In this document: piece after piece, positions 3,445 through 63,908 of the stretch
Position numbering within the stretch: the stretch's first letter is position 1
Layout of the letters: the number at the start of each line of letters is the position of its first letter
Origin: Candidatus Undivivens industriae
GTDB lineage: Bacteria; Omnitrophota; Gorgyraeia; Gygaellales; Profunditerraquicolaceae
Assembly (NCBI GenBank): GCA_012514745.1
Contig: JAAYZR010000015.1
Span: 7,479-71,478 of the forward strand
DNA: 64,000 nt
Direction of reading: 5' to 3'
The notes under the pieces: generated by a model
Told to the model about the DNA's origin: nothing
The model's input: the letters and a program-made list of their open reading frames with translations, nothing else
Databases searched by the model: none
Translations under genes and position numbers: made by a program

Positions 3445-3465
3445 ATGCCTCCGTGTATTCTTCTT

Positions 3466-14046: not shown

Positions 14047-14160
14047 CGGAGCCCCTCGGGCTAAACAGGCCGGGGATTTCCGGGCGAGGGGATTAAATCT
14101 CGATTTTCTACTCTCCATTACTCCGTGCGCTGTTTAAAGAAATTATTTAACAGCGCACTA
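14047..14160 (+). repeat. Composite repeat: GGAGCCCCTCGGGCTAAA + CCGGGGATTTCCGGGCGAGGGGATTAAAT module + family-2 terminal hairpin
   Basis: The hairpin at 14125..14159 is identical in its stem to the 2325..2359 copy. The left modules recur at 49401..49429 and 49689..49720 (inverted). Confidence 0.8.
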
Positions 14161-15045
14161 CGGCCTGGGATGGAACATCTTGTGCACAGATTTCAGCCGG
14201 TCTTTATTGATATGCGTGTATATCTGCGTCGTGGAGATATTCGAGTGCCCCAGCATCTCCTGAACCGAACGCAGGTCCGCCCCGCGCTCAAGAAGGTGCG
14301 TGGCGAAGGAATGCCTCAACAGGTGCGGTTTGATCTCTTTCTTGATGCCCGCCTTCAAGGCGTAGCTTTTGATCATCTTCCAGACCGACTGCCTGGAGAG
14401 GCGCCGCCCCAATCTGCTGACAAACATATAATCGCTCTGTTTCTTCCCAAGCATCTTCCGGCGGCTCTTCTCGAGATAAAACCTGACGCTCTCGACCGCC
14501 TTACCGCCGAGAGGCACAACCCTTTCCTTGTTGCCCTTGCCGATACAACGCAGAAACCCGACATCCATGTTCACCGACCCGGTCTTGAGATCGACCGCCT
14601 CGGAAACGCGCATGCCTGTGGCGTAAAGCGTCTCCAGTATTGCCCTGTCTCGTATGCCGCGCGCCCTGCGCAGGTCCGGCTGCGCCAGCAGAGCCTCCAC
14701 TTCCTCCACGGAAAGAGTATCCGGTATCTTCTTCCAGAGTTTCGGGGTATCTACCAACCCCGAAGGGTCATCCTTAAGCACCCTCTCCCGCACCAGAAAA
14801 CGGTAGAACATCCGTATCGCCGCCAGCCGTCTCGCGATGGAATTGGAAGATATGCCGCGCGCCTTCTGGGCAGACATAAACTCCACGATATCGCTGCGCG
14901 TAACCCCGGATAACGCGCCGGCGGAACGCTCGGATAAAAACGCCGCATATTTCTTAAGATCTCCCCGGTAGGAAACGAGCGTATTGAAAGACAGCCCGCG
15001 TTCCACGGAAAGATAATTCAGAAAGGTTTCCACCAGCTCTTTCAT
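14158..15045 (-). CDS. Tyrosine site-specific recombinase, XerC/XerD family
   Basis: 295 aa with R…HxxR…Y catalytic residues (HSFATHLLERGADLRSVQEMLGHSNISTTQIYTH). The stop codon lies inside a family-2 repeat hairpin. Confidence 0.85.
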   Translation of the reverse strand: MKELVETFLNYLSVERGLSFNTLVSYRGDLKKYAAFLSERSAGALSGVTRSDIVEFMSAQKARGISSNSIARRLAAIRMFYRFLVRERVLKDDPSGLVDTPKLWKKIPDTLSVEEVEALLAQPDLRRARGIRDRAILETLYATGMRVSEAVDLKTGSVNMDVGFLRCIGKGNKERVVPLGGKAVESVRFYLEKSRRKMLGKKQSDYMFVSRLGRRLSRQSVWKMIKSYALKAGIKKEIKPHLLRHSFATHLLERGADLRSVQEMLGHSNISTTQIYTHINKDRLKSVHKMFHPRP

Positions 15046-19713: not shown

Positions 19714-19800
19714 GATTGTCTCTCCCGAGAGCTTAACGGCTGCCGCCGTATGTTGAAAGGTTACCTCGTATATCTAAATTATAACACAAAAACTCCGCTT

Positions 19801-20181: not shown

Positions 20182-20187
20182 ATTCTT

Positions 20188-21193
20188 AATTCCGGGGACA
20201 CAATACTTAATTCAAGAAAACGACAAGAAATCGTGTTAGATTTTACCATTTTCTTGCGTCTATTATAAGAGAATAGAATTATAGCATAAGTTTCTAATTC
20301 CGGGGACACAATACTTAATTCCCCTTCTCAAATTATACGGCTCCGCGGGATACCGTTTGTTCTCGGAAGGATTTTCTTGAGATAGCGGCCAAACCTCATC
20401 TGCTCCATAAATGGCGCGCTTTTTGTATAAACCAACAAGAAGGAGGCTTTCAATGGCAAGGATAGCGAGATTAGTCGTGCCCGGAATCCCCCACCACATT
20501 GTGCAGAGAGGCAACAGACGCCAAGATGTTTTCTTTAACGACGATGACAGAAGGGCCTATCTTAATTATCTAAAAGCATACGCTATTCCTTCTGGGATAG
20601 AATTCCTGTCATATTGTTTAATGGATAATCACGTGCATATTATTGGTATCCCGAGTAACAAGGATAGTTTTGCCGACGGTTTCGGAGAAGCACATCGCAG
20701 GTACACAAGAATGATCAATTTTAGAAAAGGATGGAGAGGATATTTGTGGGAAGGCAGATTCAAATCGTACCCCTTAGGGGGCGCTTATTTATATGCCGCG
20801 CTTCGTTATATAGAAATGAATCCTGTAAGAGCGGAAATGGTGAAGAACGCCTGGGACTATCCATGGTCAAGCGCAAAAGCACATGTCTTGAACCACACTG
20901 ACATTTTACTAACAAATAATTGTATCGCTTCGGAAGTGGAGGACTGGAGATCTTTTCTTTCCGAAGATGACAAACAAGATCACGCCGACTTATTAGAAAC
21001 GCATTTGATGAGCGGACGGCCGTTGGGAGATAATAAATTTATCGAGAAGGTAGAAAGATTAACCGGCAAAATACTGTATAAGCAGAAACCGGGACCGAAG
21101 AAGGCTGAGGATTAATTATACGGGGATACGATACTTAATTATCGCATCTCCGGCATGAGCTGCTTAATAATTAAGTATTGTGTCCCCGGAATT
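20188..21193 (+). mobile_element. RAYT/REP locus: REP-associated tyrosine transposase gene flanked by REP copies (2 direct upstream, one REPIN downstream)
   Basis: REP at 20188..20212 and 20296..20320. RAYT CDS. Degenerate REP 21116..21140 plus inverted REP 21169..21193. Confidence 0.8.
20453..21115 (+). CDS. REP-associated tyrosine transposase (RAYT, TnpA_REP; IS200/IS605-like Y1 HUH transposase)
   Basis: MARIARLVVPGIPHHIVQRGNRRQDVF…, HUH motif in …LMDNHVHIIG…, catalytic Tyr region …YLYAALRYIEMNPVRA…. Start set at ATG 20453 (AGGAGG 7 nt upstream). The track start 20411 is an upstream in-frame Met. Confidence 0.85.
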   Translation: MARIARLVVPGIPHHIVQRGNRRQDVFFNDDDRRAYLNYLKAYAIPSGIEFLSYCLMDNHVHIIGIPSNKDSFADGFGEAHRRYTRMINFRKGWRGYLWEGRFKSYPLGGAYLYAALRYIEMNPVRAEMVKNAWDYPWSSAKAHVLNHTDILLTNNCIASEVEDWRSFLSEDDKQDHADLLETHLMSGRPLGDNKFIEKVERLTGKILYKQKPGPKKAED

Positions 21194-21196
21194 ACG

Positions 21197-21270
21197 CGCG
21201 CCTGGCAGGACTCGAACCTGCAACGCCCAGCTCCGAAGGCTGGCGCTCTATCCAATTGAGCTACAGGCGC
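21197..21270 (-). tRNA. tRNA-Arg (anticodon TCG)
   Basis: Hand-folded cloverleaf: acceptor GCGCCUG/CAGGCGC, D-arm GCUC…GAGC, anticodon stem CCAGC/GCUGG with loop CUUCGGA (anticodon UCG), T-arm GCAGG-UUCGAGU-CCUGC. CCA is not encoded. Confidence 0.8.
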
Positions 21271-21454
21271 ATAATTAATGTGTACTTGCGCAATTCCTCA
21301 TAAGCGCAAGGTGCGCATAATTAATGTGTACTTGCGTAATTCCTCATAAACGCAAGGTACGCATAATCAATGTGTACTTGCGCAATTCCTTACAAGTGCA
21401 AGGTACGCATAATTAATGTGTACTTGCGCAATCCCTTACAAGTGCAAGGTACTC
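21271..21454. repeat. Tandem repeat, 4 × 46 bp, directly abutting the 5′ end of tRNA-Arg
   Basis: Units at 21271, 21317, 21363 and 21409 (about 90 % identical). Each unit contains the inverted repeat CTTGCGC…GCGCAAG. Confidence 0.85.
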
Positions 21455-21559
21455 AAAATCCAAATCTTCAGCGGCGGGCGCATAAGCGCAACGCGCGCGC
21501 ACACACGGTACTTTCATTTTTCCAGGAATCTATAACCCCGCACCCAGGGCCCGCTTGTA

Positions 21560-27694: not shown

Positions 27695-27789
27695 TTCCCC
27701 TCCTCCTTTTTTTATCCTTTGATTGTTTGTTTGGCAAGGATAGTGCCGAATTGTTTGATTACATTGTTATACAAGTTTCTGATAAATGA

Positions 27790-27892
27790 GAATCGGGATT
27801 AGACCGAAATCGAGAACTTTCATCGAACAAATCTCGGTTTTCGATTCTCGATTACTCCGCGCGCCGGCTAAAAAAATTATTTAACAGCGCAT
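27790..27892 (+). repeat. Family-2-related partial element (TTTCGATTCTCGATTACTCCG module plus half-hairpin) at the bamA 3′ end
   Basis: Shares AATCTCGRTTTTC…ATTACTCCGYGCGC…AATTATTTAACAGCGCA with the 14100..14160 copy. Confidence 0.7.
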
Positions 27893-30300
27893 TAGAACCC
27901 GTGGCTCATATTGAAATGGAACCTGCCGTCGCCTCTCGAGTCCTCCCCCGAAGCCTTGTTGAGCGGGATACCGTAATCAAGCATGATCGGGCCGATAGGC
28001 GTCTTGATGCGGAAGCCTATACCAGTGCCTGCTTTCAACCCGCCGCTGCCCAATTCGTTGGCTTTTTCCCAAACATTGCCGATATCGTAGAAAAACGCCA
28101 CGCGCAGGAAATTCATCAGCGGATACGTGTATTCGGCGTTGGCAACCATTATCGCCTGACCGCCCTTAGGGTCATCATTTCCGTAGTGCGGGCCGATCTT
28201 GCGTTCCTTGTAGCCGCGGATGGTGTTGGCGCCTCCGGCGAAGTATCTTTCGTAGATCGGCACGCTGGTGCTGTCGTCATAAGGCTTAGCCACGCCCGTG
28301 CGCAGCCTTAATTCTATCACCGACTTCATGAACAGCGGCTGATAATGCGACATCCTCAAGAAAAGCTTGTAGAAATCTTTGTCTCCTCCGAACGGGCCGC
28401 CGGCGACGTCTATAGTGCCGCTGACAAGGTCCCCCCTGCGCGGGTCGAACACATTGTCCCTGCTGTCGTAGGTGAGGCCGTAACTCGTGCTACTGATATC
28501 ATATTTCCCCATTTCTTCTTCTACAAATTCTGTGTTTTTATTTAAGTCGTCGCTGGGATTACTGATCTTGATCTGCTCATACTTATACATCACGCTGCCC
28601 TTGAGATACTCGCTCAACTCCTTAGTCAGGCGCAGGTCGCCGCCGGTGACGTCTTCATCGTAGCCGTAACCGGAGTCGGAATCGCGCTCGTGCGTGCGCT
28701 TGTAAATATCGAAACCGAAAGAAACCGGATAATCGAATATCCAGGGCTGGGTAAAGCTAAGTTCATATCCCTGGGTCAGGCTGCCGATAGAGGCCCTGAT
28801 CTTCAAGTCCTGCCCGCCGCCGGTGAAATAGGGGAAATTCTTCCAGTCGAAATTCCGCTGTTCTATCTCCACGAAACCGATGAATTGGTCCACGCTGCTG
28901 TAGCCGCCGCCGAAGCTGAACATACCGGTCTTCGACTCTTTCACATCCACCACCAGGTCTTTGCGGTTAGGGACATCGGTATCATCGGTATCGTAGCTGA
29001 TCTCTTCGAAAAACCCGAGGTTCTGCAGCCTTTCCTTGCTCCTGCGCAGCTTGTCTCCGTCGAAACGGTCGCCGGGATGTATCCGCAGTTCACGACGGAT
29101 GACAATATCCCTGGTCTTGACGTTGCCGCGTATCTTGATCTTGTTCACGTAGGCGATATCGTTCTCGACTATACGGTAAAGGATATCCACGTTGCCGTTT
29201 ACCAGGCTTAAGGACGTGCTTTCCAGCACCCCGGCAAAGATGTAGCCTTTGTCGAAATACAGACCTTGGATGGAAGCGATATCTTCGTGCATCCCCTCCT
29301 GGCTGAACACCTTGCCCGGCGCGCAAACCTTGATCCTCTCCATTATGTCTTTCTGCGCGATCTCTTTGTTCCCTTCTACCTTCACGGAACCCACGAAATA
29401 TTTCCTGCCCTCGTTTATGGTGACTATGACCGACAGGGTATTACGGTGTTTGTTCGGGACCACTTCGTAGGAGACCGTCATATCGGCGTAGCCGCTGCGC
29501 CTGTAGAAATCGCGCAGCCGGTCCATATCTTCCTTTATCACTTCTTCCTTAAGTATACCGGAATTGAAAAGCCAGGCTCGCCTGGTCTTCATTATCTTTA
29601 ATATCTTGCCTTTTTTGTAGGCCTTGGCGCCGCGGACGAAAATGTCCCGTATCTTGGTCCTGATGCCTTCTTCCACCTTGAAAATGACCAGCGCCTTGCC
29701 GTTTTCTTTGTTAAAATCAACGGAATATTCGACTTTAGCGCTGCTGTAGCCGCGTTTCTCGTAAAGCGCCTTCAACGTCGCGCTGTCATCGGTCAATGTC
29801 GGATGGTCGAGATACTGCGCTTCTTTGGACTTTATCATCCCTTTAAGCTTATCCTCTTTCATACGAAGGGTTTTTACCCCTGAAAAAGAGATTTTTTCTA
29901 TAAGCGGACGCTCGTTGACTGTTATCACGAGCTTGAGCCCGCCGTTATAAGGCTTGACGTCGGTATTGATATCACTGAAAAATCCCAGCAGATACAGCCT
30001 CTTGATATCGTCGCTTACAACGTTCTCCTGGTAAAGGCCGCCGACTTTCGTTTTTATTTTGGCTATTATGGTATTGGTGCTGATGGTCTTGTTGCCGGCG
30101 ACTTCTATTGCAGTAACCTTGGAATCCGGGGATATTGTCGGAGAGTTCTCTGCCGGGGGAAGCGCTGCGGCCGGAGAAGGAGCGGCCTGCGAAACGCCGC
30201 TGCCGGCAGACTGAGAATCCTGCGCGAATACGGCGGCCGCCGTGAAAAAGACGAGAACAAAAGGTATTGCCCGGAATACATTCTTATGCGTCATATTCAA
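27892..30300 (-). CDS. bamA: Outer membrane protein assembly factor BamA
   Basis: 802 aa with a signal peptide, POTRA repeats and a C-terminal 16-strand barrel ending in an aromatic residue (…HGF). Confidence 0.9.
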   Translation of the reverse strand: MNMTHKNVFRAIPFVLVFFTAAAVFAQDSQSAGSGVSQAAPSPAAALPPAENSPTISPDSKVTAIEVAGNKTISTNTIIAKIKTKVGGLYQENVVSDDIKRLYLLGFFSDINTDVKPYNGGLKLVITVNERPLIEKISFSGVKTLRMKEDKLKGMIKSKEAQYLDHPTLTDDSATLKALYEKRGYSSAKVEYSVDFNKENGKALVIFKVEEGIRTKIRDIFVRGAKAYKKGKILKIMKTRRAWLFNSGILKEEVIKEDMDRLRDFYRRSGYADMTVSYEVVPNKHRNTLSVIVTINEGRKYFVGSVKVEGNKEIAQKDIMERIKVCAPGKVFSQEGMHEDIASIQGLYFDKGYIFAGVLESTSLSLVNGNVDILYRIVENDIAYVNKIKIRGNVKTRDIVIRRELRIHPGDRFDGDKLRRSKERLQNLGFFEEISYDTDDTDVPNRKDLVVDVKESKTGMFSFGGGYSSVDQFIGFVEIEQRNFDWKNFPYFTGGGQDLKIRASIGSLTQGYELSFTQPWIFDYPVSFGFDIYKRTHERDSDSGYGYDEDVTGGDLRLTKELSEYLKGSVMYKYEQIKISNPSDDLNKNTEFVEEEMGKYDISSTSYGLTYDSRDNVFDPRRGDLVSGTIDVAGGPFGGDKDFYKLFLRMSHYQPLFMKSVIELRLRTGVAKPYDDSTSVPIYERYFAGGANTIRGYKERKIGPHYGNDDPKGGQAIMVANAEYTYPLMNFLRVAFFYDIGNVWEKANELGSGGLKAGTGIGFRIKTPIGPIMLDYGIPLNKASGEDSRGDGRFHFNMSHGF

Positions 30301-30422
30301 AGTGGGATTTTATACCGCATACACGTTGATCCCGGCCGCATCACCGTCTCAAAATACACGGCCGCAACAATTTGTTTCAGTATAACACACCGCGTTCAAA
30401 AAGCAATAGAAAAATCTTTTGC

Positions 30423-30475
30423 TTCCGGGGACACAATACTTAATTATAATAATTAAGTATTGTGTCCCCGGAATT
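30423..30475. repeat. REPIN (5-bp spacer) at the dnaB 3′ end
   Basis: Forward copy 30423..30445, inverted copy 30451..30475. The dnaB stop TAA is at 30474..30476. Confidence 0.9.
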
Positions 30476-31820
30476 AAAACTCTACCCTGGCGTAATTTTC
30501 AAAACGGGTATATTCTTTTATAAAGGAGAGTTTGACCGATCCGACCGGGCCGTTGCGTTGTTTGGCGACTATGATTTCGGCGATACCTTGATTTTCCGGG
30601 GTGGGATTATAATATTCTTCCCTGAGAATAAGCACCACCACGTCCGCGTCCTGCTCGATGGCTCCCGATTCCCTCAAATCCGATAACTGCGGGCGGTGAT
30701 CGTCGCGGCGCTCCACGGCGCGCGAAAGCTGGCTGATGGCGATAACCGGCACGTTCAGCTCTCTGGCCAGCGCCTTCAAAGAACGCGATATCTCGGATAT
30801 CTCCTGCTGTCGGCTCTCGTCCGAACCGCTGCCGCTGCCGCGCATCAACTGCAGGTAATCCAGGATTATAAACTGGATATCATGGTGAGCCTTGAGCCTG
30901 CGCGCCTTGGCGCGCAGTTCCATTACCGAAATGCCCGGGGTATCGTCGATATAGATGGGCGCCTCGGAAAGCCGTCCGGCGGCCGCGGTGAGTTTGGGCC
31001 AGTCGGACGCGGAAAGGTATCCGGTCCTGACCTTATGGGCGTCAACCCTGGCGTGAGAACAAAGCATCCTTTGCACGAGCTGTTCTTTGGACATTTCCAG
31101 GCTGAATATAGCGGTGGGCACTTTGGCGGACACCCCGGCGTATTCGGCCATAGACAAAGCCAAAGCGCTCTTCCCCATGGAAGGGCGCGCAGCCACGATC
31201 ACCAGATCGGACGCCTGCATACCGGAGGTTATCGTGTCGAAATCCAGGAAACCGGTGGGGATACCGGTGACATGCGCCTTCTTCTGGTAGAGGCGGTCGA
31301 TATTCTCTATGCTGTCCTTGATGATCTCTTTCAGGTGGATGGCGCTTCCCCGGTGGCGGCGGTCGCTCACTTCGAAGATGAGTTTCTCGGCGTTATCGAC
31401 CAGCTCGCGGACGTTCCCCTCGTTCTCGTAACAGGAGGAGATGATGCGTGTGGCGCTGCTGATCAGCCCGCGCAGAACGCTTTTATCGCGCACTATCCCG
31501 CTGTAATGACGGATATTGGCCGCGCTCGGCACCGCATTGACCATAGACGCCAGATAACTGGCCCCGCCGGTCTCCTCGAGTATCCCCTTGCGGCGCAGTT
31601 CGTCTGTCAGCGTGATAAGATCAACCGCCTTGTTGACGTTGAAAAGATCCAGTATGGTTTCGAATATCTTGCGGTGGGAATCTTTATAGAAACATTCTTT
31701 GCCGAGGTGCTCCGCGGCGACCGCTATCGCCTCTTCATCCATAAGCATGGAACCGAGGACAGCCATTTCGGCGTCCAGGTTCTGCGGCGGGAGTTTCTCG
31801 ATGGAACTTTCCGTAGGCAT
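30474..31820 (-). CDS. dnaB: Replicative DNA helicase
   Basis: Walker A GKS/T motif (ARPSMGKSALALS) and a DnaB N-terminal domain (LPPQNLDAEMAVLGSML). The start is probably ATG 31820. The stop abuts a REPIN. Confidence 0.9.
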   Translation of the reverse strand: MPTESSIEKLPPQNLDAEMAVLGSMLMDEEAIAVAAEHLGKECFYKDSHRKIFETILDLFNVNKAVDLITLTDELRRKGILEETGGASYLASMVNAVPSAANIRHYSGIVRDKSVLRGLISSATRIISSCYENEGNVRELVDNAEKLIFEVSDRRHRGSAIHLKEIIKDSIENIDRLYQKKAHVTGIPTGFLDFDTITSGMQASDLVIVAARPSMGKSALALSMAEYAGVSAKVPTAIFSLEMSKEQLVQRMLCSHARVDAHKVRTGYLSASDWPKLTAAAGRLSEAPIYIDDTPGISVMELRAKARRLKAHHDIQFIILDYLQLMRGSGSGSDESRQQEISEISRSLKALARELNVPVIAISQLSRAVERRDDHRPQLSDLRESGAIEQDADVVVLILREEYYNPTPENQGIAEIIVAKQRNGPVGSVKLSFIKEYTRFENYARVEF

Positions 31821-37155: not shown

Positions 37156-37339
37156 GCTTTATTCCGGATCCAAATTAAGAGCTTTTTACCGTCATCGCGG
37201 GTTAAAGGCGAAGAACCAGGCTTCCGCCGGGAGTTTTCCTCGTCCGCCGCTGAAACACCGGCGAGACCCCGTAATCCGCCTTTTCAACTCTCTATTTTCG
37301 ACTTTCGATTCTCTATTTTTTTCGCCGGAGGCGAAAAAA

Positions 37340-41673: not shown

Positions 41674-41703
41674 TTTTATCCCGGAACTCGCGCGTGACGG
41701 CGT

Positions 41704-41770
41704 AATTCCGGGGACACAATACTTAATTGTGTGTGCTTTTAGGAATAATTAAGTATTGTGTCCCCGGATT
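41704..41770. repeat. REPIN between the TPR lipoprotein gene and the small basic ORF
   Basis: Forward copy 41704..41728, inverted copy 41747..41770 (1-nt deletion). The spacer GTGTGTGCTTTTAGGAAT is homologous to the spacer of the 45427 REPIN in reverse. Confidence 0.9.
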
Positions 41771-41777
41771 ACGTTTA

Positions 41778-41879
41778 CTAATTCCAGTCTCTCTTCTTCA
41801 CGTGACGCAGACGGCGGCGCATTTTCTTGCGCTTATGCGTCCGTATCTTGATTCTTTTTCTTTTTTTGCCGCAAGGCAT
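41778..41879 (-). CDS. Small, highly basic protein (33 aa), co-transcribed downstream of hisG
   Basis: MPCGKKRKRIKIRTHKRKKMRRRLRHVKKRDWN. The RBS GGAGGAG lies 6 nt upstream and the gene is 13 nt after the hisG stop. It is below the ORF-track length cutoff. Confidence 0.45.
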   Translation of the reverse strand: MPCGKKRKRIKIRTHKRKKMRRRLRHVKKRDWN

Positions 41880-45058: not shown

Positions 45059-45091
45059 GAAAATCCCCGGGGTTGAAAGCCGGGGATTTTT
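45059..45091. terminator. Bidirectional rho-independent terminator between convergent ppiD-like (+) and ferredoxin (−) genes
   Basis: Symmetric AAAATCCCCGG-GGTTGAAAG-CCGGGGATTTTT. A second hairpin lies at 45105..45133. Confidence 0.55.
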
Positions 45092-45155
45092 GCGGTTTGA
45101 TTTAGAAGCCCCGCATGCAAACGCGGGGCTTTTAAATCGTTATTCGGTGTTCTGA

Positions 45156-45338: not shown

Positions 45339-45426
45339 TTTTCATTCCTCCTGAATGGAACCTTGGAACTAAAACCAGAGGCCCCTGTTTTTTCCGGCGA
45401 AGCTCCGGCTCCCCCGGTACATGGTC

Positions 45427-45492
45427 ATTCCGGGGACACAATACTTAATTATTTCTAAAACCACACACAATTAAGTATTGTGTCCCCGGAAT
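45427..45492. repeat. REPIN between the ferredoxin and rubrerythrin-like genes
   Basis: Forward copy 45427..45450, inverted copy 45469..45492. The rubrerythrin-like stop abuts it. Confidence 0.9.
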
Positions 45493-45493
45493 C

Positions 45494-45973
45494 TTAGCGC
45501 TCCATAAGATTCTCAAACATCTCTTCGTGTTCGATTTCCTCGGCGAGTATATGCACAACCAACTGATAGGTTACGTGGTCCTTACCGAACGTCTTCTTAG
45601 CGATCTTGTTGTAAACATCTATCGCGGAAGCCTCGGCTTCGGTAACGATGCGGATTATACGGTTGATATCCGCTCCGTTCTTGGGAGGCATTATGTAAGG
45701 CGCGTTGGCGTTTTTTTCAAGTTCCATCGGATTGGCTATCGGGACACCGCCCAGTTTCGTGATCAGGTCGGCCAGTTCTTCAGCGTGTTCCTTCTCATCC
45801 GCGGCGATTTTCTTCAGCAATTCCTTCATATCCTCGTAGGCCTTGCCGCAGACTATCTGGGCCATATACCAATAAAGATAATGCGCCAGCCATTCGTCGG
45901 CGTAAGCTTTCGTCAGGTCTTTGACGATATCCTTAAGTGGAATTTCCGTTATCGCCCTTGCCTGCTTTCCCAT
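45494..45973 (-). CDS. Ferritin-like diiron protein (rubrerythrin/bacterioferritin superfamily, no rubredoxin domain)
   Basis: Paired E…ExxH motifs (EKEHAEEL … EEIEHEEMF). Confidence 0.6.
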   Translation of the reverse strand: MGKQARAITEIPLKDIVKDLTKAYADEWLAHYLYWYMAQIVCGKAYEDMKELLKKIAADEKEHAEELADLITKLGGVPIANPMELEKNANAPYIMPPKNGADINRIIRIVTEAEASAIDVYNKIAKKTFGKDHVTYQLVVHILAEEIEHEEMFENLMER

Positions 45974-48341: not shown

Positions 48342-48901
48342 TATTTTACCTCGTTATATTTATGTTTCACGTACTCAAACCCCTCTTTTACCGACGCTAT
48401 ATTCCCATCCAACGCTTTACCGCTGAATCTCTTCTTGATCGCCTCCAGCAGCGCCTCCTGGCTGAACTCTCCGGTGGCTGCGGCAAACGCGCCAAGCAGG
48501 GCCGTGTTGGCCAGCGGCCTGCCGATAGTCTTCATGGCTATATCCGTCGCCGGAACCAGCAAGGCCTTCTGGCGCGCCGACAGTTTCGGGATTTCCACTT
48601 CGCCGTCCTTGCCGTTTATCACGGCGATGCCGGCGTCTTGCAGACCGGAAAAACAGTTGAACCCGCGCATCAGAGTCGGATCAATCACCAGCAGATAATC
48701 CGGTTCGTAAATTTGGCTGCGCAGGCGCACGGGTTTGGAATCCACCCGCACATACGCGTTCATCGGCGCTCCCATACGCGCGGCCCCAAAATTCGGAAAG
48801 GCGTAAGGATACATCCCCTGCAGGGAATAAACATACCCCAGCAACGAAGCCGTGGTAATGGCGCCCTGCCCCGCCCTTGCGTGAATACGTATTTCTTTCA
48901 T
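48341..48901 (-). CDS. porC: Pyruvate:ferredoxin oxidoreductase gamma subunit
   Basis: MKEIRIHARAGQGAITTASLLG… The start is at ATG 48901 (RBS AAGGAG). The track's longer ORF runs into a repeat element. Confidence 0.8.
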   Translation of the reverse strand: MKEIRIHARAGQGAITTASLLGYVYSLQGMYPYAFPNFGAARMGAPMNAYVRVDSKPVRLRSQIYEPDYLLVIDPTLMRGFNCFSGLQDAGIAVINGKDGEVEIPKLSARQKALLVPATDIAMKTIGRPLANTALLGAFAAATGEFSQEALLEAIKKRFSGKALDGNIASVKEGFEYVKHKYNEVK

Positions 48902-48973
48902 TATGGTTGCTCCTTGAGGAATGGAACTTCCCAGGCTGGTCCTTCGACTTTGCTCAAGCCCGGCACCCTGGGG

Positions 48974-49104
48974 TACATTCGGGATGAAAGACAAGTTGGG
49001 TTCTGTTGGTTACTGTAACCGAAAATCGAAAGTTGACCGTCTCGCCACTGAAGCGTTGGCGGTTTCGTGCGCTGTCCAAAAAACTTACTGAACAGCACAC
49101 TCCC
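48974..49104 (+). repeat. Family-2 mosaic intergenic element (about 131 bp), full copy A
   Basis: About 85 % identical to the reverse complement of 52335..52474. It contains GGTTACnGTAACC and GCCRCYGAAGCGTTGGCGG inverted repeats and the terminal hairpin GTGCGCTGT…ACAGCACAC. Confidence 0.85.
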
Positions 49105-49400
49105 CGGAATTCAAGAGGTTTTGTAGTATTTTACTGCCGCCCTCCGGGGCTGTCAAACATTATTTTTAAGACATAGGTGTAACTTGCTGCGGCAATTAAA
49201 GTTATAGCATACAGCCATCAAAAGGGCCCGGCAGGCGATTTCTACAGTAAAAGGAACGGATCTAAGCAGTTCAACAGTTTCACTACAAAGGGTTGTCGAA
49301 GGAGTCAACCGCGGCGCGCCGGGTAGATTGCTTCAAGAAGGACGGCCGACTTTCATCCGGCTTACCGCCTCCACTAACCGGGCCCCTCATAATGCGTTAT

Positions 49401-49720
49401 ATTTAATCCCCTCGCCCAGAAATCCCCGGGTTTTAACCCGGGGGTACCTTAGCCTATAGGATGGCTAAGTATTCACCTGTGTGTTATACCTTAGCCTATA
49501 GGAATAACACCCTGCCTTAAAGGAAAGGCAGGTGTTCACCAGTGTGAAAGTATTCGCTCGTGCGTTATACCTTGGCCAATTGGGATAACACCCTGCCTTT
49601 AAAGGAGAGGCAGGTGTTCACCAGTGTGAAAGTATTCGCTCGTGCGGTACACCTTAGCTTATTGGAAAGCTAAGTGTTCGCTCGTGCGAAGGAGCCGCGG
49701 GCTTTAGCCCGAGGGGCTCC
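49401..49720. repeat. Composite repeat region: 28-bp GGATTAAAT/CCGGGG module (inverted), a CCCCGGG hairpin, about 3 tandem ~82-bp units (49446..49688), and a GGAGCCGCGGGCTTTAGCCCGAGGGGCTCC hairpin
   Basis: Units: 49446..49487 (partial), 49488..49568, 49569..49650, 49651..49688 (partial). Each full unit contains CTGCCTTAAAGGAAAGGCAG and TTCACCAGTGTGAA hairpins. Confidence 0.8.
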
Positions 49721-49839
49721 ACAATAGTTACAACGCCGGATCTTTAAGTTCCTTGATCTCCAAACCCGAGAAGCTGATTTCCAGCGGACTGTTGATTTGC
49801 TGCGGTTTGATTAATTGGTACTGTGCGCTCGGCTCTGTT

Positions 49840-51132
49840 TTAGCGCCCTATTCCTTTATATAGGAATCCGAATCGCTCCATTGTCTCCGGATTAAAAATG
49901 TTCCTGCCGTCTATGATAAACCGGCTGCGCATCACTTTTTTAAGTTCGGCCGGGTCAAGGCGCCGGAATTCCTCCCATTCAGTAACTACCAGCAGACAAT
50001 CCGCTCCTGTGGCGGCGGCGTAGGCGTCACGGCAGAACTTCACCCCCTTTAATTCCCGCGCGGCTTTAGGCATCGCGTGCGGATCATAAGCCCGGATCCT
50101 GGCGCCTGAGCGCTGCAGCGTAACTATGAGCTCAAGAGCGATGGAATTACGTATGTCATCGGTGTTCGGTTTGAAGCTTAAGCCCAGCACGGCGATGGTC
50201 TTGTTTTTTATTTTACCGAGCCCAGCTTTTACTTTCTTGAAGACGACTTTCTTCTGCTCCTTGTTTATACTGCGCACTGCTTTCAGCAATTCAAAGTTAT
50301 AGCCTTTTTTCTGGGCGATATGAATAAAGGCGTCCAGGTCTTTGGGAAAACAATACCCCCCGAACCCGGCCCCGGCGTCGAGAAAAGAGGCGCCGATGCG
50401 CTTGTCGAGCCCCATGGCGTGCGCCACCTGCTTGACATCAGCCCCGACAAGCTCGCAAAGATTGGCCACGGCGTTTATAAAGGATATCTTGGTGGAAAGA
50501 AAACCGTTGCAGGCATGCTTGATGATCTCCGCCGTGGGAATATTGGTCACTACAACCGGGGCATTGATCGGGGCATAGAGCCTGCGCATTATCTTCCCGG
50601 CCTTCTCGCTTTCCACCCCTATCACAATGCGGTCGGGATGCATGGTATCGGAAATGGCCTGCCCCTCACGCAGGAACTCCGGGTTGGAGGCCACGTCGAA
50701 TTCGTATTTGCCGCGCGTTAACCTTTCCACGGTCTGCCGGATACGTTCCCCGGTCTGTACCGGGACCGTGGATTTAGCGACGATCACTTTGTAGCCGTTC
50801 ATAGACCCGGCGATCTCCTGCGCCGTATATTCCACCGCCGAAAGGTCCGCGCCGCCGTCAGCGTTGGCCGGCGTGCCCACGCAAATGAAAATAATATCCG
50901 ACTTGCGCGCGGCTTCTTTGATGCTGTGAATAAACCCTATCCTGCCGGACTTTCTGTTCTTTCTTATCAACTCATTCAGCCCGGGTTCATAAATGGGAAC
51001 GCCGCCTTTCCTCAGTCTTTCCAGTTTCCCGCGGTCGTTGTCCACGCAGAGCACTCTATTGCCGATCTCCGCTAAGCACGCCGCCGTCACCAATCCTACG
51101 TATCCGGCACCTATCACGCAGATGTTATACAT
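49840..51132 (-). CDS. ugd: UDP-glucose 6-dehydrogenase
   Basis: MYNICVIGAGYVGLVTAACLAEIG… with a catalytic Cys region (GFGGYCFPKD). Confidence 0.9.
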   Translation of the reverse strand: MYNICVIGAGYVGLVTAACLAEIGNRVLCVDNDRGKLERLRKGGVPIYEPGLNELIRKNRKSGRIGFIHSIKEAARKSDIIFICVGTPANADGGADLSAVEYTAQEIAGSMNGYKVIVAKSTVPVQTGERIRQTVERLTRGKYEFDVASNPEFLREGQAISDTMHPDRIVIGVESEKAGKIMRRLYAPINAPVVVTNIPTAEIIKHACNGFLSTKISFINAVANLCELVGADVKQVAHAMGLDKRIGASFLDAGAGFGGYCFPKDLDAFIHIAQKKGYNFELLKAVRSINKEQKKVVFKKVKAGLGKIKNKTIAVLGLSFKPNTDDIRNSIALELIVTLQRSGARIRAYDPHAMPKAARELKGVKFCRDAYAAATGADCLLVVTEWEEFRRLDPAELKKVMRSRFIIDGRNIFNPETMERFGFLYKGIGR

Positions 51133-51137
51133 TTAGA

Positions 51138-52148
51138 TTACTCCTTATCCTTCTTGCGTTTAGCGCCCTTCGAGTTCTTCTGCTGCCATTCCCACGCCGA
51201 GGATATTATCTGTTCCAGGCCGAGCTTGGGCCTCCAGCCAAAGAGTTCTTCGGCTTTAGCGTAGGAGGCCACCAGTTCCGCGGCGTCCCCGGGCCTGCGC
51301 GCGGCTATTTTGACCGGGAGGGGACTGCCGGTGATTTTTTCGACGGACGAGACCATTTCTTTGACGCTGTATCCCCTGCCGCTGCCCAAGTTTAAGGCGG
51401 CGTTTTTCACGCTCTTGTCCAGCGCCTCCAAGGCCAGTAAATGCGCCCGGGCCAAATCCATCACGTGTATGTAATCCCTGATACAGGTACCGTCGCGCGT
51501 GGGATAGTCATCCCCGAAGATGTTCAATGCCGGGATATCACCCGCCGCCGCCTTCAGCGCGTTGGGAAGTAGATGCGTCGCCTCTTCAAGCGGCTGCCCT
51601 ATCCTGCCGCTCGGGTGCGCTCCGGAAACGTTGAAGTAACGCAAAGCCAGATAATCCATCTTTCCGGCGGCGGCGCAGTCACGCAATATCTGCTCCACCA
51701 TCATCTTGGAAGTTCCATAAGGGTTCTCCGGCCGCAGGGGGGCTTCCTCGTTCACCGGCACCAGCTCCGGCTGTCCGTAAACCGCGGCCGAGGAAGAAAA
51801 AATGAATTTGCGCGCGCCGTGCTTCAGGCAATGTTGAAGCAGGTTGACAGATCCCCAGACGTTGTTGTCGTAGTACTTCAACGGCTCGCTCACCGACTCC
51901 GGGACCACTATCGAGGCCGCGAAATGCAAGACGGCATCGAAGCGGAAGCGCGAAAAAAGATTCTCCAGATCCTGCGCGGACCGCAGATCGCCCCGCACGA
52001 ATTCCACGCCCTCCGGGACGCGCTCCCTCCTGCCGGTAGATAGATCGTCGAACACCACCGCTTCTCTTCCCTGCTCAAGCAAGAGGCTCAACATATGCGA
52101 ACCGATATACCCGGCACCGCCGGTGATCAGAATGAGGTCATTTTTCAA
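51138..52148 (-). CDS. galE: UDP-glucose 4-epimerase (NAD-dependent epimerase/dehydratase)
   Basis: ITGGAGYIGSH…YxxxK. The likely start is TTG 52148 (GGAG RBS). The track ORF's first 13 aa derive from a degenerate REP. Confidence 0.8.
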   Translation of the reverse strand: MKNDLILITGGAGYIGSHMLSLLLEQGREAVVFDDLSTGRRERVPEGVEFVRGDLRSAQDLENLFSRFRFDAVLHFAASIVVPESVSEPLKYYDNNVWGSVNLLQHCLKHGARKFIFSSSAAVYGQPELVPVNEEAPLRPENPYGTSKMMVEQILRDCAAAGKMDYLALRYFNVSGAHPSGRIGQPLEEATHLLPNALKAAAGDIPALNIFGDDYPTRDGTCIRDYIHVMDLARAHLLALEALDKSVKNAALNLGSGRGYSVKEMVSSVEKITGSPLPVKIAARRPGDAAELVASYAKAEELFGWRPKLGLEQIISSAWEWQQKNSKGAKRKKDKE

Positions 52149-52160
52149 CGTTAACTCCGT

Positions 52161-52185
52161 AACTCCGGGGACACGATACTTAATC
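52161..52185. repeat. Degenerate single REP (AACTCCGGGGACACGATACTTAATC) at the galE 5′ end
   Basis: 3 mismatches to the consensus. Confidence 0.7.
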
Positions 52186-52334
52186 AAGCCGCAGAATGCG
52201 GCGCAGGTTACCCCGTAGAGTGCCGGGAAAATGTCGAAGAGATTTCCCCGGTATCTTACGACATGGGGTTAATTTGGGAAGCTCCCCAAGGGGAGCTTCA
52301 TTACTCGGTAACGCTTACGGTCACGAAGCCCGTT

Positions 52335-52474
52335 AGTGCGCTGTTTGATAAGTTTTTTACAGCACACAGAGGCCGCCAACGCTTCGGCGGCGGGACGGTC
52401 AAATTTCGCCTTTCGATTTTCGGTTACGGTAACCAACAGAACCCAACTTATCTTTTTCCCCGAATGGGTCCCCC
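52335..52474 (-). repeat. Family-2 mosaic intergenic element, full copy B (inverted relative to A)
   Basis: Hand alignment with copy A across its full length. Terminal hairpin GTGCGCTGTTTGATAAG…CAGCACAC. Confidence 0.85.
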
Positions 52475-52727
52475 TCCGCTTTTTCCTCCCCTCGATGAGG
52501 AGGATTTAGGAGAGATATTAATCTTCCCTGTCCTCCGATGGAGAGAATGAAGGAGGGGTACAAGACTAAAAACAAGGGCATTGTAACCGGGAAACGACAG
52601 CCGAGATTTAATCAAACCGCAGAAATCCCTGCTTTTCAAGCCGGTTATAAGAAACAATCTTAAGGATTGGAGCCGGATTTTTCAATGCTTATTTTGAACA
52701 TAAAGGATATTTGCTGCTTAATATTCT

Positions 52728-53858
52728 TTATCTTACCGCTTTTTTAAGCAGTAGCAGGGCGAGACGAATGCGGTTTTTCATCCCGCGGTTCCGCCAGACG
52801 CAAAGCAAATAATGCATGAACACAGGTAATATGCCCCGTACCGGAAGGCCGAATATTATCCCGCAGGCCCGGTCGTTTGCCATCGGGATGATATAGCCCG
52901 GGTCAAAAGTCCGGTATTCCCTCGGCGGAAGCGAATCCATATCGTTTAGGATATTCCTGGCGCAGGATTCGCCCTGGGTGATGGCGAATTGCACCGACAT
53001 ACGTAAACAACCCTGCCCTGCGGATAAACAGGCGTTGTCCCCGGCGGCAAAACACGTCCGGGATATCCGCAGACACTCATCTACCTTCAGTCTGCCTTGC
53101 GGCGTGCGCCGCGCGGGAATACGGTCTATAAAATCCGGCGTCTTTACCCCGGCCGCCCAAACCACGATGCTTTTGCCGAAAACACTTCCGTCGGAAAGCA
53201 CGCTCCTGCCGGCGCGCGTCTCAGTAACGGAAAGCCCCGTCTTCACTTCTATCCCGCAGGCGGCGAGATCGTCCTTAACGTAAACCTTCATCCATTCCGG
53301 CAACGGGCCCAGGATCGACGGGGATTTTTCTACGATGATTATCCGGCTCCTGCGCCGTTTTTCGCGCAGGAAAAGCGAAAGATTGGAAGCGATCTCGATG
53401 CCGGTATAACCTCCCCCGGCAACCAGGTAATTATCATAACAACCGATTTCGAGGGCCTGGCGGAGTTTCAGGGCGTCGGAAACATTGTCAAGTTTATAAG
53501 TTGACTCGGACAGGGAGACATTCCCGTGGAAATCGGTTTCCGTGCCGCAGGCAAGCAGGAGATAATCGCAGTCGATATTCAGCCCGCTTCCCAGGTGCAG
53601 GCTTCTGCCGTCGGGTGAGACCGCCTGGGCGATATCCTGAATGAAACGCGCCTTTAATCCCGAACAGATATCCTTAAAAGGATATGCCATCAGCCCCGCC
53701 GGGATGCCTCTACCCAGAACGTCCGGCAGCAGAGGCAAGAAATTAAAACACTGTCTCCTGTCCACCAGCGCCGTTTCCAGGTTTTTACCGCGGCGGGACA
53801 ATATCCCGGCAGCAGCCAGCCCGGCGAATCCTCCCCCGACTATCACTACTCGTTTCAT
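52728..53858 (-). CDS. FAD/NAD(P)-binding oxidoreductase, NDH-2 (type II NADH dehydrogenase) family
   Basis: MKRVVIVGGGFAGLAAAG… and a second dinucleotide-binding motif (YLVAGGGYTGIE). Confidence 0.7.
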   Translation of the reverse strand: MKRVVIVGGGFAGLAAAGILSRRGKNLETALVDRRQCFNFLPLLPDVLGRGIPAGLMAYPFKDICSGLKARFIQDIAQAVSPDGRSLHLGSGLNIDCDYLLLACGTETDFHGNVSLSESTYKLDNVSDALKLRQALEIGCYDNYLVAGGGYTGIEIASNLSLFLREKRRRSRIIIVEKSPSILGPLPEWMKVYVKDDLAACGIEVKTGLSVTETRAGRSVLSDGSVFGKSIVVWAAGVKTPDFIDRIPARRTPQGRLKVDECLRISRTCFAAGDNACLSAGQGCLRMSVQFAITQGESCARNILNDMDSLPPREYRTFDPGYIIPMANDRACGIIFGLPVRGILPVFMHYLLCVWRNRGMKNRIRLALLLLKKAVR

Positions 53859-59204: not shown

Positions 59205-59303
59205 AACCTGTTGAAAGATATAAGAAACGGGTTGAACAATAATATTCGCATCTCTGTCGGTGCCGTTATGATAACACAGCGGGGAAAACAAGGCAAACCT
59301 TTT

Positions 59304-59369
59304 AATTCCGGGGACACAATACTTAATTATTGTTGTCGCCTTACAATTAAGTATTGTGTCCCCGGAATT
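59304..59369. repeat. REPIN in the divergent era–mutS intergenic region
   Basis: Forward copy 59304..59328, inverted copy 59345..59369. Confidence 0.9.
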
Positions 59370-59380
59370 ACAGGTATAAA

Positions 59381-61978: not shown

Positions 61979-63779
61979 AGTAATCAGTAAAATAGCGGCC
62001 GGGGAAGTCATTGAACGCCCGGCTTCCGTGGTCAAGGAATTAATGGAGAATTCAGTGGATGCCGGCGCCGAGCGCGTCGAAGTCGAGATCAAATCCGCCG
62101 GAAAGGAACTGATCTCCGTGCGCGACGACGGATGCGGCATAGGGCCGGAAGACATGGACAACGTCTTCCAGCGGCACTCCACCAGCAAGATAGCCAAGGC
62201 CGAGGATATCTATATGGTCGGGTCTCTGGGATTCAGGGGAGAGGCCCTCTACAGCATCGCCTCGGTCTCGGACGTGCTCCTGCAAAGCCGGACAAGAGAC
62301 AACGACGCCGGATGGGAGATACACCTGCGCGGAAACAAACGCCTCAAATCGGCGCCTGCCGGGGTCTCCTACGGAACGACACTCGAAATAAGAGAGCTTT
62401 TTTTCAACACCCCGGCACGGCGCAAGTTCTTGAAGAGCGATACCACGGAAACTAACGAAATAATCGACGTTTTTATGCCTTACGCGCTGCTCTACCCCGG
62501 CAAGGAATTCAAGCTCGTATCCAACGGGAAGGTACTGCTGGAGCTCGAGAAACACGACAGCCACAGGCAAAGGATGGCGGCGGCCCTGAACCTCGAGTCT
62601 AAGAACCTCATCGAGACGGAAAAAATCTTCCCGCAGGAACGCTTGAACATACACCTTGTGCTGGGCAATATAAATCTTCAACGGAAACGGCGCGATATGC
62701 AGTTTATTTTTGTCAACGGCAGGCCGGTATCTTCGAAAGATATCTCCTTCCACGTCAACCAGGCTTATCGCCTGCTTATGCCGGACGGAGTTAACCCTAT
62801 TTTTTCAGTCCATCTGCGCCTGCCGCAGGAGAATATCGACGTTAACGTGCACCCCGCCAAACGCGAGATCAGGATCAAGGACGAACGCAACATCTTTCTG
62901 CTGCTAAGAAACTGCTGTGAGCATGCACTGATGAACATCTCGCCTGCCAGACAATTCGGACAGCAGATATCCAGTTTCCATTTCAACGGCGAACCGCCGC
63001 ATTCCCCCGGAGTAAACACTCCTCATCCGAGAGCGTCAGGAGAAAAAGAGGACAGGACCGCGGAAAGCGGGAAACCCTACCGGGTGCGGAGCGAATTCCC
63101 GTTCCCTTCCGGGGGACGTCCGCCGGCGATGGAACGCCAGAACGTGTTTTCGCAGGAGGAAAGCGCCATGCTCCTGCGCAAAGAAGAGATCGCTGCGGAG
63201 AAAAACGAAGACCTCAAGTCCACGCTCAAAAGCGCGCGCTTTATCGGTTCGCTGAAAAAGAAATATCTGTTATTCGAATCTACGGCCTCTCTCTTGCTGA
63301 TAGACCAGCACGCCGCGCAAGAAAGGATCACCTATGAAAAGCTTTCCCGTCAGATGGCAACCGGAAAAGTAGAAATACAGAACCTGCTGGCTCCGCTGAC
63401 GATACGACTCAACAAAAAAGAGATACTGGCCTGGGAGATATTGAAAGAAAAACTGGAGAAAATCGGTTTCTCAACCACGCTTTTCGACAAGGAGACCGTG
63501 GCGGTCCATTCGCATCCGGCGCTGCTCGCGCAACCCGAAGCGGCTGTGCGCGACATACTCTGCGATGAAGAATCAAAGATTTACGATACCGATATGCTGG
63601 CAAGAAGGGCATGCAGACAATCGCTTATGACGGGATACGATATGAAGGCCCAAGAAGCGGAGTATCTGGCAGAGGAACTGCTCAAATGCGCCGACCCGTT
63701 CACCTGCCCGCACGGCAGGCCTACGGTAGTGGAGATAACGATGCTTTCGCTGGATAAGAATTTCTTCCGAAGGCTGTAG
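61950..63779 (+). CDS. mutL: DNA mismatch repair protein MutL
   Basis: …ISKIAAGEVIERPASVVKELMENSVDAGA… is a GHKL ATPase. The C-terminal dimerisation domain ends FTCPHGRPT…. The stop lies inside a family-2 hairpin. Confidence 0.9.
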   Translation: MAKVHQLPPEVISKIAAGEVIERPASVVKELMENSVDAGAERVEVEIKSAGKELISVRDDGCGIGPEDMDNVFQRHSTSKIAKAEDIYMVGSLGFRGEALYSIASVSDVLLQSRTRDNDAGWEIHLRGNKRLKSAPAGVSYGTTLEIRELFFNTPARRKFLKSDTTETNEIIDVFMPYALLYPGKEFKLVSNGKVLLELEKHDSHRQRMAAALNLESKNLIETEKIFPQERLNIHLVLGNINLQRKRRDMQFIFVNGRPVSSKDISFHVNQAYRLLMPDGVNPIFSVHLRLPQENIDVNVHPAKREIRIKDERNIFLLLRNCCEHALMNISPARQFGQQISSFHFNGEPPHSPGVNTPHPRASGEKEDRTAESGKPYRVRSEFPFPSGGRPPAMERQNVFSQEESAMLLRKEEIAAEKNEDLKSTLKSARFIGSLKKKYLLFESTASLLLIDQHAAQERITYEKLSRQMATGKVEIQNLLAPLTIRLNKKEILAWEILKEKLEKIGFSTTLFDKETVAVHSHPALLAQPEAAVRDILCDEESKIYDTDMLARRACRQSLMTGYDMKAQEAEYLAEELLKCADPFTCPHGRPTVVEITMLSLDKNFFRRL

Positions 63780-63885
63780 TGCGCTGTTAAATAAGCTCTT
63801 TAGACAGCGCATTCCCCTCCTTCATCATCCCCATCGAGGAAAAGGAAGATTAGTTGAACTCTGTTGGTTCCCGTAACCGTTGCCG
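63776..63885 (+). repeat. Family-2-related rearranged element (terminal hairpin + CTGTTGGTTCCCGTAACC module) at the mutL 3′ end
   Basis: Hairpin AGTGCGCTGTTAAATAAGCTCTTTAGACAGCGCAT. …CTCTGTTGGTTCCCGTAACCG matches the core of copies A and B. Confidence 0.7.
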
Positions 63886-63908
63886 AATTAAGTATTGTGT
63901 CCCCGGAA
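63886..63908. repeat. Single inverted-orientation REP downstream of mutL
   Basis: AATTAAGTATTGTGTCCCCGGAA, adjacent to a family-2 element. Confidence 0.85.

Follow-up and report, generated by a model that had tools for sequence, protein, structure and literature searches.

The 64,000-nt stretch of Candidatus Undivivens industriae analysed here (contig JAAYZR010000015.1, positions 7,479 to 71,478; hereafter the window) carries a family of short, palindrome-bearing intergenic repeats, first noticed at 48974-49104 (copy A) and, in inverted orientation, at 52335-52474 (copy B). Our analysis indicates that this family is probably a non-autonomous element of the kind known as miniature inverted-repeat transposable elements (MITEs), spread through Candidatus Omnitrophota. 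Several features by which MITEs are recognized were found: the element is small (below about 300 bp) and non-coding, has terminal inverted repeats and an apparent target-site duplication, and exists in multiple copies whose sites are polymorphic. The family is previously undescribed, the kind of element is known, and it represents no new class of RNA or regulator. Literature searches for MITEs or other repeats in Omnitrophota, and for the motif itself, found nothing relevant. The preference of the copies for stop codons is neat and would not surprise a specialist; the result is a useful annotation correction for Omnitrophota genomes.

Copies in the window and anatomy of the canonical element

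A sequence-only reading of the window had described A and B as two full-length copies, about 85% identical, with three internal inverted repeats and partial copies elsewhere. The global alignment of A (48974-49104, plus strand) with the reverse complement of 52335-52474 bears out the similarity, with 110 of 126 ungapped columns identical (87%), one 7-nt indel, a few small gaps, and a 46-nt core that BLAST matches with an E-value of 1e-16. The three inverted repeats of A are present in B as well: hairpin 1 (GTGYGCTGT..ACAGCRCAC), hairpin 2 (CCGCCA..TGGCGG) and a third one, GGTTACNGTAACC, located at 49008-49020 in A and 52422-52434 in B. The stem of hairpin 1, previously given as 11 bp, measures 10 bp, or 13 bp with an imperfect extension.

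With at most one mismatch allowed, the window contains 10 occurrences of the 10-mer GTGCGCTGTT, where 3.1 would be expected; none of 100 shuffles equalled this number. Six sites, all of them intergenic as had been proposed, hold the palindrome GTGCGCTGTT-N12-14-AACAGCGCAC, with paired arms at 2320-2353, 14125-14158, 27861-27892 (left arm degenerate), 49067-49100, 52336-52367 and 63779-63812; the four that were said to adjoin a stop codon do so (mraY, an xerD-like gene, bamA and mutL). Profiles that included copies from other genomes, or were built solely of them, returned the same six sites in the window and no other significant match. The match to the copy at 14125 comes as two segments because an insert is nested in it. 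The module at 37290-37330, suggested earlier as a further recurrence, is not significant as a seventh copy: its E-value in the profile search was 0.07 or worse, and shuffles attain equal scores. Pfam matches bear out the names given to the flanking genes at the outset: MraY, MurD, an XerD-like recombinase, a CCA/poly(A) polymerase-type enzyme, BamA, Skp and MutL. The copies are the following.

48976-49101, minus strand: copy A, a chimera (nhmmer E-value 6e-18, model positions 2-94 of about 115)
49010-49101, minus strand: type-2 left part of A, which holds hairpin 1 (49067-49100) and hairpin 2 (49043-49061)
48976-49020, minus strand: module Q of A, including the palindrome GGTTACTGTAACC at 49008-49020; the canonical right inverted repeat is missing
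52334-52466, plus strand: copy B, a chimera built like A (E-value 3e-18), with hairpin 1 at 52336-52367, hairpin 2 at 52372-52393 and GGTTACGGTAACC at 52422-52434
2267-2356, minus strand: type-2 copy with a decayed right end that fills the mraY-murD spacer (hairpin 1 at 2320-2353, hairpin 2 at 2293-2315); the TAG at 2354-2356 is the mraY stop
13964-14161, minus strand: type-1 copy of full length, lying between the xerD-like gene and cca (E-value 5e-39; left core at 14140, right core at 13974) and holding a nested, unrelated 53-nt module (14046-14098); the xerD-like gene stops with the TAG at 14159-14161
27755-27896, minus strand: full-length type-1 copy in the bamA-skp spacer (E-value 2e-39), with a degenerate hairpin 1 at 27861-27892; the TAA at 27894-27896 is the bamA stop
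63776-63812, plus strand: solo hairpin 1 at the mutL stop (TAG at 63777-63779), where the profile matches the palindrome alone (63777-63811)

The full-length copies in the window are therefore those at 13964-14161 and 27755-27896, and not A and B. The canonical element is mostly 95-145 nt long (range 76-229 nt) and lies between a left terminal inverted repeat, TGCGCTGTTAAATAAGTT, and a right one, AACTTATGTAACAATGCA, with NTAG as the flanking 4-mers. Written as its reverse complement, TGCATTGTTACATAAGTT, the right end has tips that align exactly with the left TGCGCTGTTAAATAAGTT from the first base on (TGC...GCA); read by eye, the left end TAGTGCGCTGTTAAATAAGTT and the reverse complement of the right end TACTGCATTGTTACATAAGTT match at 17 of 21 positions. 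With both ends aligned from their tips, the element takes the form TGCGCTGTT....AACAATGCA. A repeat finder reports the core pair TGTTAAATAAGTT / AACTTATGTAACA, whose 13-nt arms are 92% complementary and 71-73 nt apart, and the core TGTTAMATAAGTT is found as inverted pairs in most copies. The left repeat is followed by a second, inward-facing copy of the tip, AACAGCGCA, which gives rise to the palindrome of hairpin 1 (about 13-8-13); this palindrome is in effect two repeat tips placed back to back, with 13-nt arms and an 8-nt spacer. As regards coding capacity, the open reading frames (ORFs) in the region of A and B are merely short, overlapping, on both strands and unsupported.

Two kinds of middle, exchangeable on the same ends, are found between the repeats. 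The type-1 middle is AT-rich (CAATCGAGAGTCGAAAATCGAGATTTGATTCGAT..., with ..AATCGAGATTTGATTCGAT..), and the type-2 middle, TCCGCCAAnGCTTyAGTGGCGGACGGTC, is the CCGCCA..TGGCGG hairpin. At one orthologous site (L014 and L023; L-numbers are the labels of the retrieved related loci or strains used for comparison) two species share the hairpin but differ in what comes after it, which is a type-2 middle in one and a type-1 middle in the other. The shuffling of modules had been called unusual; we see it as the norm, since MITE subfamilies, bacterial interspersed mosaic elements (BIMEs) and BOX elements usually keep their ends while exchanging their middles, and form mosaic clusters.

Distribution, insertion sites and stop codons

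A JGI metagenome contig has the same sequence as the window, and contigs of metagenome-assembled genomes (MAGs) named Candidatus Omnitrophota are 92-95% identical to it. The scan for the exact palindrome, which covered one genome per species, returned 37 loci, of which 28 come from six Omnitrophota species (one labelled ‘Planctomycetales’ by its submitter) with G+C contents of 44-55%; one MAG holds at least 14 exact palindromes. The remaining nine are single high-GC hairpins with unrelated loops from other phyla and are taken as chance. The Omnitrophota copies share a conserved context, NTAG-TGCGCTGTT-loop-AACAGCGCAC-RGAG, followed by one of the two middles and then by ..TCGATTATCAGAAACTTATGTAACAATGCA, and the palindrome is also present in loci that were retrieved via an unrelated module. 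The repeat family is thus real and, as had been expected, not confined to the window, with at least six further Omnitrophota species carrying it. In viral contigs the hairpin pattern had no matches and the 19-mer and 18-mer repeat-end patterns had only chance matches in AT-rich phage genes, while BLASTN against plasmids and phages gave no match.

The flanks of the copies provide the first line of evidence for transposition. Of 22 copies, 7 have the same 4-mer on both sides, as in GTAG/GTAG, ATAG/ATAG and TTAG/TTAG (permutation mean 2.9, p 0.008), and the variable first base of the 4-mers matches in 11 (mean 5.9, p 0.012). Among the left 4-mers of 43 copies, GTAG is found 16 times, TTAG 10, ATAG 5 and CTAG 4, and the reverse-complement forms CTAC, CTAT and CTAA together 5 times. 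Flank identity above the permutation expectation indicates a putative target-site duplication at NTAG. Terminal inverted repeats and matching flanks, the two signs that had been proposed as a check, were both found in canonical copies, A and B having no right repeat; together with the polymorphic sites described next, they agree with the resemblance to MITE, Correia and ERIC elements noticed before.

Orthologous sites supply the second line. L013 carries a 115-nt insertion, consisting of a type-2 element and a flanking repeat, at a position that is empty in the window (19728-19747) and in L012. An element follows an ftsL-like stop codon in L054, at a place where the window (8282-8316) has unrelated spacer and no element. 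In L015, two nearly identical and hence presumably recent inverted copies 1.4 kb apart, with exact common runs of 81 and 21 nt, flank the housekeeping gene mtaB and not a transposase; the copy upstream of mtaB is absent in a relative with a 96%-identical MtaB, the downstream one is common to both, and both are absent in a relative with 72% MtaB identity. Tandem copies with a single common junction 4-mer were found in L011, L032, L008 and L025. Two tandem elements occupy the orthologous bamA-skp site in L032, and the bamA copy of the window looks like a fusion of them. The mraY-murD copy has an ortholog in L040 (92-95% identity), and its hairpin 1 is missing at this place in L054 (about 77% identity). 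Where the neighboring genes are co-directional, 16 copies are oriented along them and 7 against them. Mobility is further indicated by the nested module in the xerD-cca copy and by the absence of the block around copy B from a 98%-identical strain (see below). The bamA-skp spacer of L032 also contains, at its positions 5461-5494, a 34-nt palindromic insert, CTTAACCGGGATTTTGCATCCTGCAAATTCCCGG, that is absent in the window and that we list as another small mobile palindrome.

The placement of the copies relative to genes is strongly biased. The TAG stops of mraY, the xerD-like gene and mutL directly precede TGCGCTGTT, and the TAA of bamA is in the same position. The window has 25 TAA, 19 TGA and 8 TAG stop codons, and 3 of the 8 TAG stops carry the element; across all loci, 18 of 43 copies stand at a TAG that terminates, in frame, an ORF of 60 codons or more. 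The window has approximately 190 TAG sites that are not in coding interiors, and only about 8 of them are stop codons; half of the copies are nevertheless located at these, and the enrichment is therefore real. As part of the duplicated NTAG target, the TAG would belong to the host gene and not to the element, which fits the varying base before TGCGC and the bamA copy sitting on CTAA. We dropped the view that the G of TAG comes from the element itself, given that C, T or A precedes TGCGC in 7 copies and that the 4-mers match at both ends.

We propose that a transposase encoded elsewhere would recognize the tips of the repeats and that the element would insert at NTAG, most commonly GTAG, and duplicate the tetranucleotide. 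An in-frame TAG can only be a stop codon, and an insertion there would leave the protein intact; with the protein unchanged, copies would accumulate exactly at stops and fill short spacers. Insertion exactly at the stop may be the least harmful choice in a short spacer, the alternative being a mechanistic or functional reason. Once inserted, the elements would be co-transcribed and form stable RNA hairpins, which may incidentally affect mRNA stability or translation termination.

Several results weigh against this proposal. Neither an autonomous element nor a cognate transposase was found in the window or in about 50 Omnitrophota-related loci by a search for inverted repeats 0.6-3.5 kb apart and for multicopy ORFs; the absence of a transposase in the window agrees with the sequence-only reading, and the sole multicopy transposase-like ORF in those loci is an unrelated REP-associated tyrosine transposase (RAYT; REP, repetitive extragenic palindrome). 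The cleanest empty site, that of the window and L012 compared with L013, is off by 3 nt from the 4-bp prediction and fits a duplication of TA or GTA better, so the duplication may be 2, 3 or 4 bp long. The xerD-cca and bamA-skp copies are fixed in all strains retrieved, with no polymorphism and so no clean empty site. Selection is only the presumed cause of the enrichment at stop codons. Finally, the xerD stop is occupied, with identical 10-bp arms, in a lineage whose XerD and LigA are only 65% and 55% identical to the proteins of the window, a situation that needs repeated insertion, exchange between copies, or selection on the palindrome.

Selection of this kind would make the palindrome TGCGCTGTT-loop-AACAGCGCA (about 13-8-13) a phylum-wide cis-element, used at TAG stops by a conserved Omnitrophota protein or by the ribosome or RNA-decay machinery. 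Compatible with it are the identity of the arms across genomes of 44-55% G+C, the xerD-stop site at 65% XerD identity, the over-representation of stop TAGs among occupied sites, and mismatches that tend to be G-U on the sense strand. We give this explanation a small chance only. If it were true, translation termination would be coupled to the fate of the mRNA 3’ end or to expression of the next gene, and domestication would have turned the element into a portable module for gene ends.

As a transposable element, the family would account for many long spacers, contig breaks and seemingly conserved intergenic hairpins in Omnitrophota MAGs, and the presence or absence of its copies would offer a ready way to tell apart strains and populations in an uncultured phylum. 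Its landing on NTAG, and hence on stops, may illustrate how a small transposon colonizes compact genomes without breaking genes, and the defined pair of ends gives a handle for seeking the transposase of the family. Should the hairpins prove to act on gene expression, Omnitrophota would have in this family a counterpart of the REP or Correia elements.

Alternative readings of the palindrome and relation to known systems

The hairpins could also be a host-selected RNA element (a 3’-end stabiliser, a processing site, a translation-termination brake or a small RNA) whose mobility is merely apparent, an alternative that the sequence-only reading had left standing together with transcription terminators. 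We consider it unlikely. Folding in the transcribed direction is stable, with a z-score of -5.1 for 2287-2356 (minus strand) and, for A, -3.1 on the gene strand but -0.8 on the opposite one, and this speaks in its favor; two cases make no rule, however, and the pattern would equally arise from a mutation bias linked to transcription. Five one-sided changes in the stem of hairpin 1 all yield G-U pairs in the TAG-first orientation, an excess that may come from the same bias. Two of the 8 pairs of hairpin 2 show compensatory changes, whereas none of the 10 pairs of hairpin 1 is changed on both sides, its stems being conserved in sequence with no covariation, and a search anchored on the loop found no copies with different but complementary stems. 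For the whole structure, shuffles equal the observed values in 28 of 500 cases for paired cells, cells changed on both sides and the covariation score, in 143 of 500 for pairs changed on both sides, and in 479 of 500 for further pair types. These covariation measures are not convincing for related sequences and cannot be separated from shuffles once relatedness is considered. The strong association with stop codons, the same xerD-stop position in deeply diverged lineages and the fixation within species would all suit an RNA function; against it, copies lie in both orientations relative to genes, A and B being opposed with respect to the surrounding minus-strand genes, and their presence or absence varies among close relatives at several sites.

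More specific RNA candidates fare no better. Rfam yields only two tRNAs at gathering score in the window and nothing at an E-value of 1 or below in 48880-49860. A terminator scan of 48800-52800, which holds A and B, did not call hairpin 1. Hairpin 1 is followed by RGAG.. or TA.. and by no T-run, and one copy lies inside the dcw (cell-division) operon, between mraY and murD. The missing T-run, the missing terminator call and this copy within an operon led us to reject an intrinsic terminator. Members of the family should not be annotated as small RNAs, riboswitches or terminators.

The layout of the palindrome, with 13-nt arms that are 92% complementary and 8 nt between them, is also that of a tyrosine recombinase site of the loxP/FRT type, either Xer-like or integron-like and placed directly after genes in the manner of attC. 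The palindrome adjoins an xerD-like gene in the window and in the distant relative L011, and GTGCGC and TGTTAAAT may resemble in part the outer portions of the E. coli dif site. On the other hand, many copies per genome lie beside core genes of conserved order (mraY-murD, xerD-cca, bamA-skp), which is not cassette-like, and the indel of L013 is a whole 115-nt insertion bounded by a distant repeat, not a segment between two palindromes. From the sequence, TGTTAAAT would point the wrong way for the XerD arm of dif, with no 6-bp central region in the right place. We regard a recombinase site as very improbable, and its dif/Xer version as ruled out by arm orientation and copy number.

Relation to the REP/RAYT system has to be weighed separately, as the window contains a RAYT gene.

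20187-21194, plus strand: RAYT island with an ORF at 20453-21112 (Y1_Tnp, E-value 2.4e-10), flanked by inverted CCGGGGACACAATACTTAATT repeats

Under a reading of the REP/BIME type, which we also hold to be unlikely, the family would be a 34-nt palindrome with a 5’ (G)TAG head, spread by a RAYT of the HUH-Y1 kind acting on single-stranded hairpins and forming BIME-like mosaics. The short imperfect palindrome is indeed preceded by GTAG in 16 of 43 copies, stands in mosaic clusters with other palindromic modules, and occurs solo in L028 and at 63776-63812 of the window. The RAYT of the window and three clades of homologues in other Omnitrophota (P0026, P0075 and P0108; 59-68% identity), however, are flanked by inverted CCGGGGACA..TTAATT repeats that co-vary with the protein, and no GTGCGCTGTT palindrome lies near any of them. 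The elements have, in addition, a second, distant inverted repeat and flanks that match in the variable base, neither of which is expected of REPs. The base before TAG is not constant and often agrees with the 4-mer at the opposite end, so that NTAG would behave as a target and not as a REP head. The RAYT was ruled out as the mobiliser of the family because the RAYT genes are flanked by a different repeat, in line with the independence from REP/RAYT claimed at the outset. The whole RAYT island is absent at the orthologous site of two related species, L012 and L013.

The RAYT-type repeats of the window form a family of their own. REPIN-like doublets, made of two inverted 23-mers, are located at 3448-3544, 30404-30483, 41687-41779, 45409-45501, 59287-59377 and other positions. 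A 66-nt doublet (45418-45483) is missing in strains L004-L006, which are otherwise 99.5-100% identical, and this repeat family has therefore been recently mobile.

Among described elements, those of the Correia type (NEMIS/CREE) in Neisseria are close in build: they are about 100-160 bp long, encode nothing, end in inverted repeats and duplicate a target that contains TA, and they exist in many intergenic copies, often within operons, and are co-transcribed to form RNA hairpins. The Omnitrophota family resembles them in size, lack of coding, inverted repeats, apparent TA-containing target and intergenic copies. It differs in that it has no sequence similarity to them, an extra inward tip at one end that produces the 34-nt palindrome, an apparent target of NTAG (4 bp) and not TA, and a strong enrichment at stop codons. 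Correia and ERIC elements are, like the Omnitrophota family, not known to have a cognate transposase. ERIC/YPAL in enterobacteria and RUP in Streptococcus pneumoniae are likewise small palindromic intergenic elements at TA-containing sites, variable at orthologous sites and co-transcribed, and RUP is presumably mobilised in trans by a transposase of the IS630 family. The Omnitrophota family has no sequence relationship to these, the search for a partner insertion sequence found none, and two types of middle share the same ends. With REP, BIME and REPIN sequences the family has in common short palindromes, a GTAG-like head, mosaic clusters and frequent placement near stops; the differences are the other repeat that flanks the RAYT genes examined, the distant second inverted repeat and the matching flanking 4-mers. 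The IS5 family duplicates a 4-bp, TA-centred target (YTAR), to which the apparent target seen here is similar, and an IS5 end presumably contains GGTGCGAATAAG, which may resemble GTGCGC..AAATAAG. This is a lead and not a result. The first base of the target seen here is not limited to C or T, and no IS5-like transposase was found between such ends. The family is thus analogous to Correia, ERIC/YPAL and RUP in build and behavior and, having no sequence relationship to them, a member of none.

Copies A and B and other repeats of the window

A and B match the type-2 profile solely through position 94 of about 115, where the canonical right repeat is replaced by module Q, CATTCGGGrdGAAAGAyArGTTGrryTCTGTTGGTTACnGTAACCG. 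They are degenerate chimeras of a type-2 left part and module Q, not the archetype of the family, and are probably no longer mobile. Their form is rare, with one copy in the 98%-identical strain L053 and none in other Omnitrophota loci. A metagenome scan with the module specific to A and B returned few copies, and the A/B form itself is therefore not a large family. Module Q was found elsewhere in three metagenomic contigs and in the window at 63814-63906, between a CCTCCCC..GGGGAGG hairpin and a RAYT-type REP, and it is multicopy in another composite in a relative of about 77% identity. At this mutL locus, the solo hairpin 1 is followed on its 3’ side by a CCCCTCC..GAGG hairpin (63814-63845), an inverted Q-like module (63846-63879) and the RAYT-type REP (63886-63906). 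The surroundings of A and B hold two further features.

52197-52624: strain-variable block of 428 nt with copy B and two CCTCCCC..GGGGAGG hairpin modules
49128-49156, minus strand: sigma-70-like promoter TTGACA-17-TAAAAT with 11 of 12 consensus matches, which is context and not part of the element

The block is bounded by 17-nt direct repeats, TTAATCAA(G/A)CCGCAGAA, at 52180-52196 and 52608-52624, and is missing, together with copy B, in the 98%-identical strain L053. Inverted copies of AATCAAACCGCAGAAATCCCTGCTTTTCAAGCC at 45070-45102 and 52610-52642 are overlapped by these direct repeats. The promoter lies just upstream of A in the direction of the genes and about 225 nt upstream of the start of a 2-oxoacid:ferredoxin oxidoreductase gamma subunit. 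With the promoter directly upstream, A would be within the leader of the oxidoreductase operon and probably makes up most of it.

Other repeats were observed in the window. The hairpin module CCTCCCCTCGATGGGGAGG, at 52485-52558 and 63814-63845, also occurs in L008, L033, L036 and L046-L058, adjoins the palindrome or module Q in several species, and is probably a further independent repeat family. The 53-nt module that is contiguous at 14046-14098 is interrupted at 49405-49722 by a 318-nt segment of 81-82-nt tandem repeats (49467-49689). This segment has no Rfam match; it is absent in L006 and L053, has one unit fewer in L004, and similar units are found in another species (L017, L023 and L036). 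Adjoining a tRNA-Arg gene and the RAYT island, about 4.5 tandem copies of a 46-nt unit fill 21268-21497, each with GGTGCGCATAAT, a likely match to the XerC arm of the E. coli dif site. In L012 and L013 this array has a different size and content. Lastly, 21-nt tandem repeats at 4829-4912, within a Mur-ligase-like gene, encode GLARPSR-type repeats near the N-terminus, and their copy number differs by 63 nt from that of L040, the relative of 92-95% identity.

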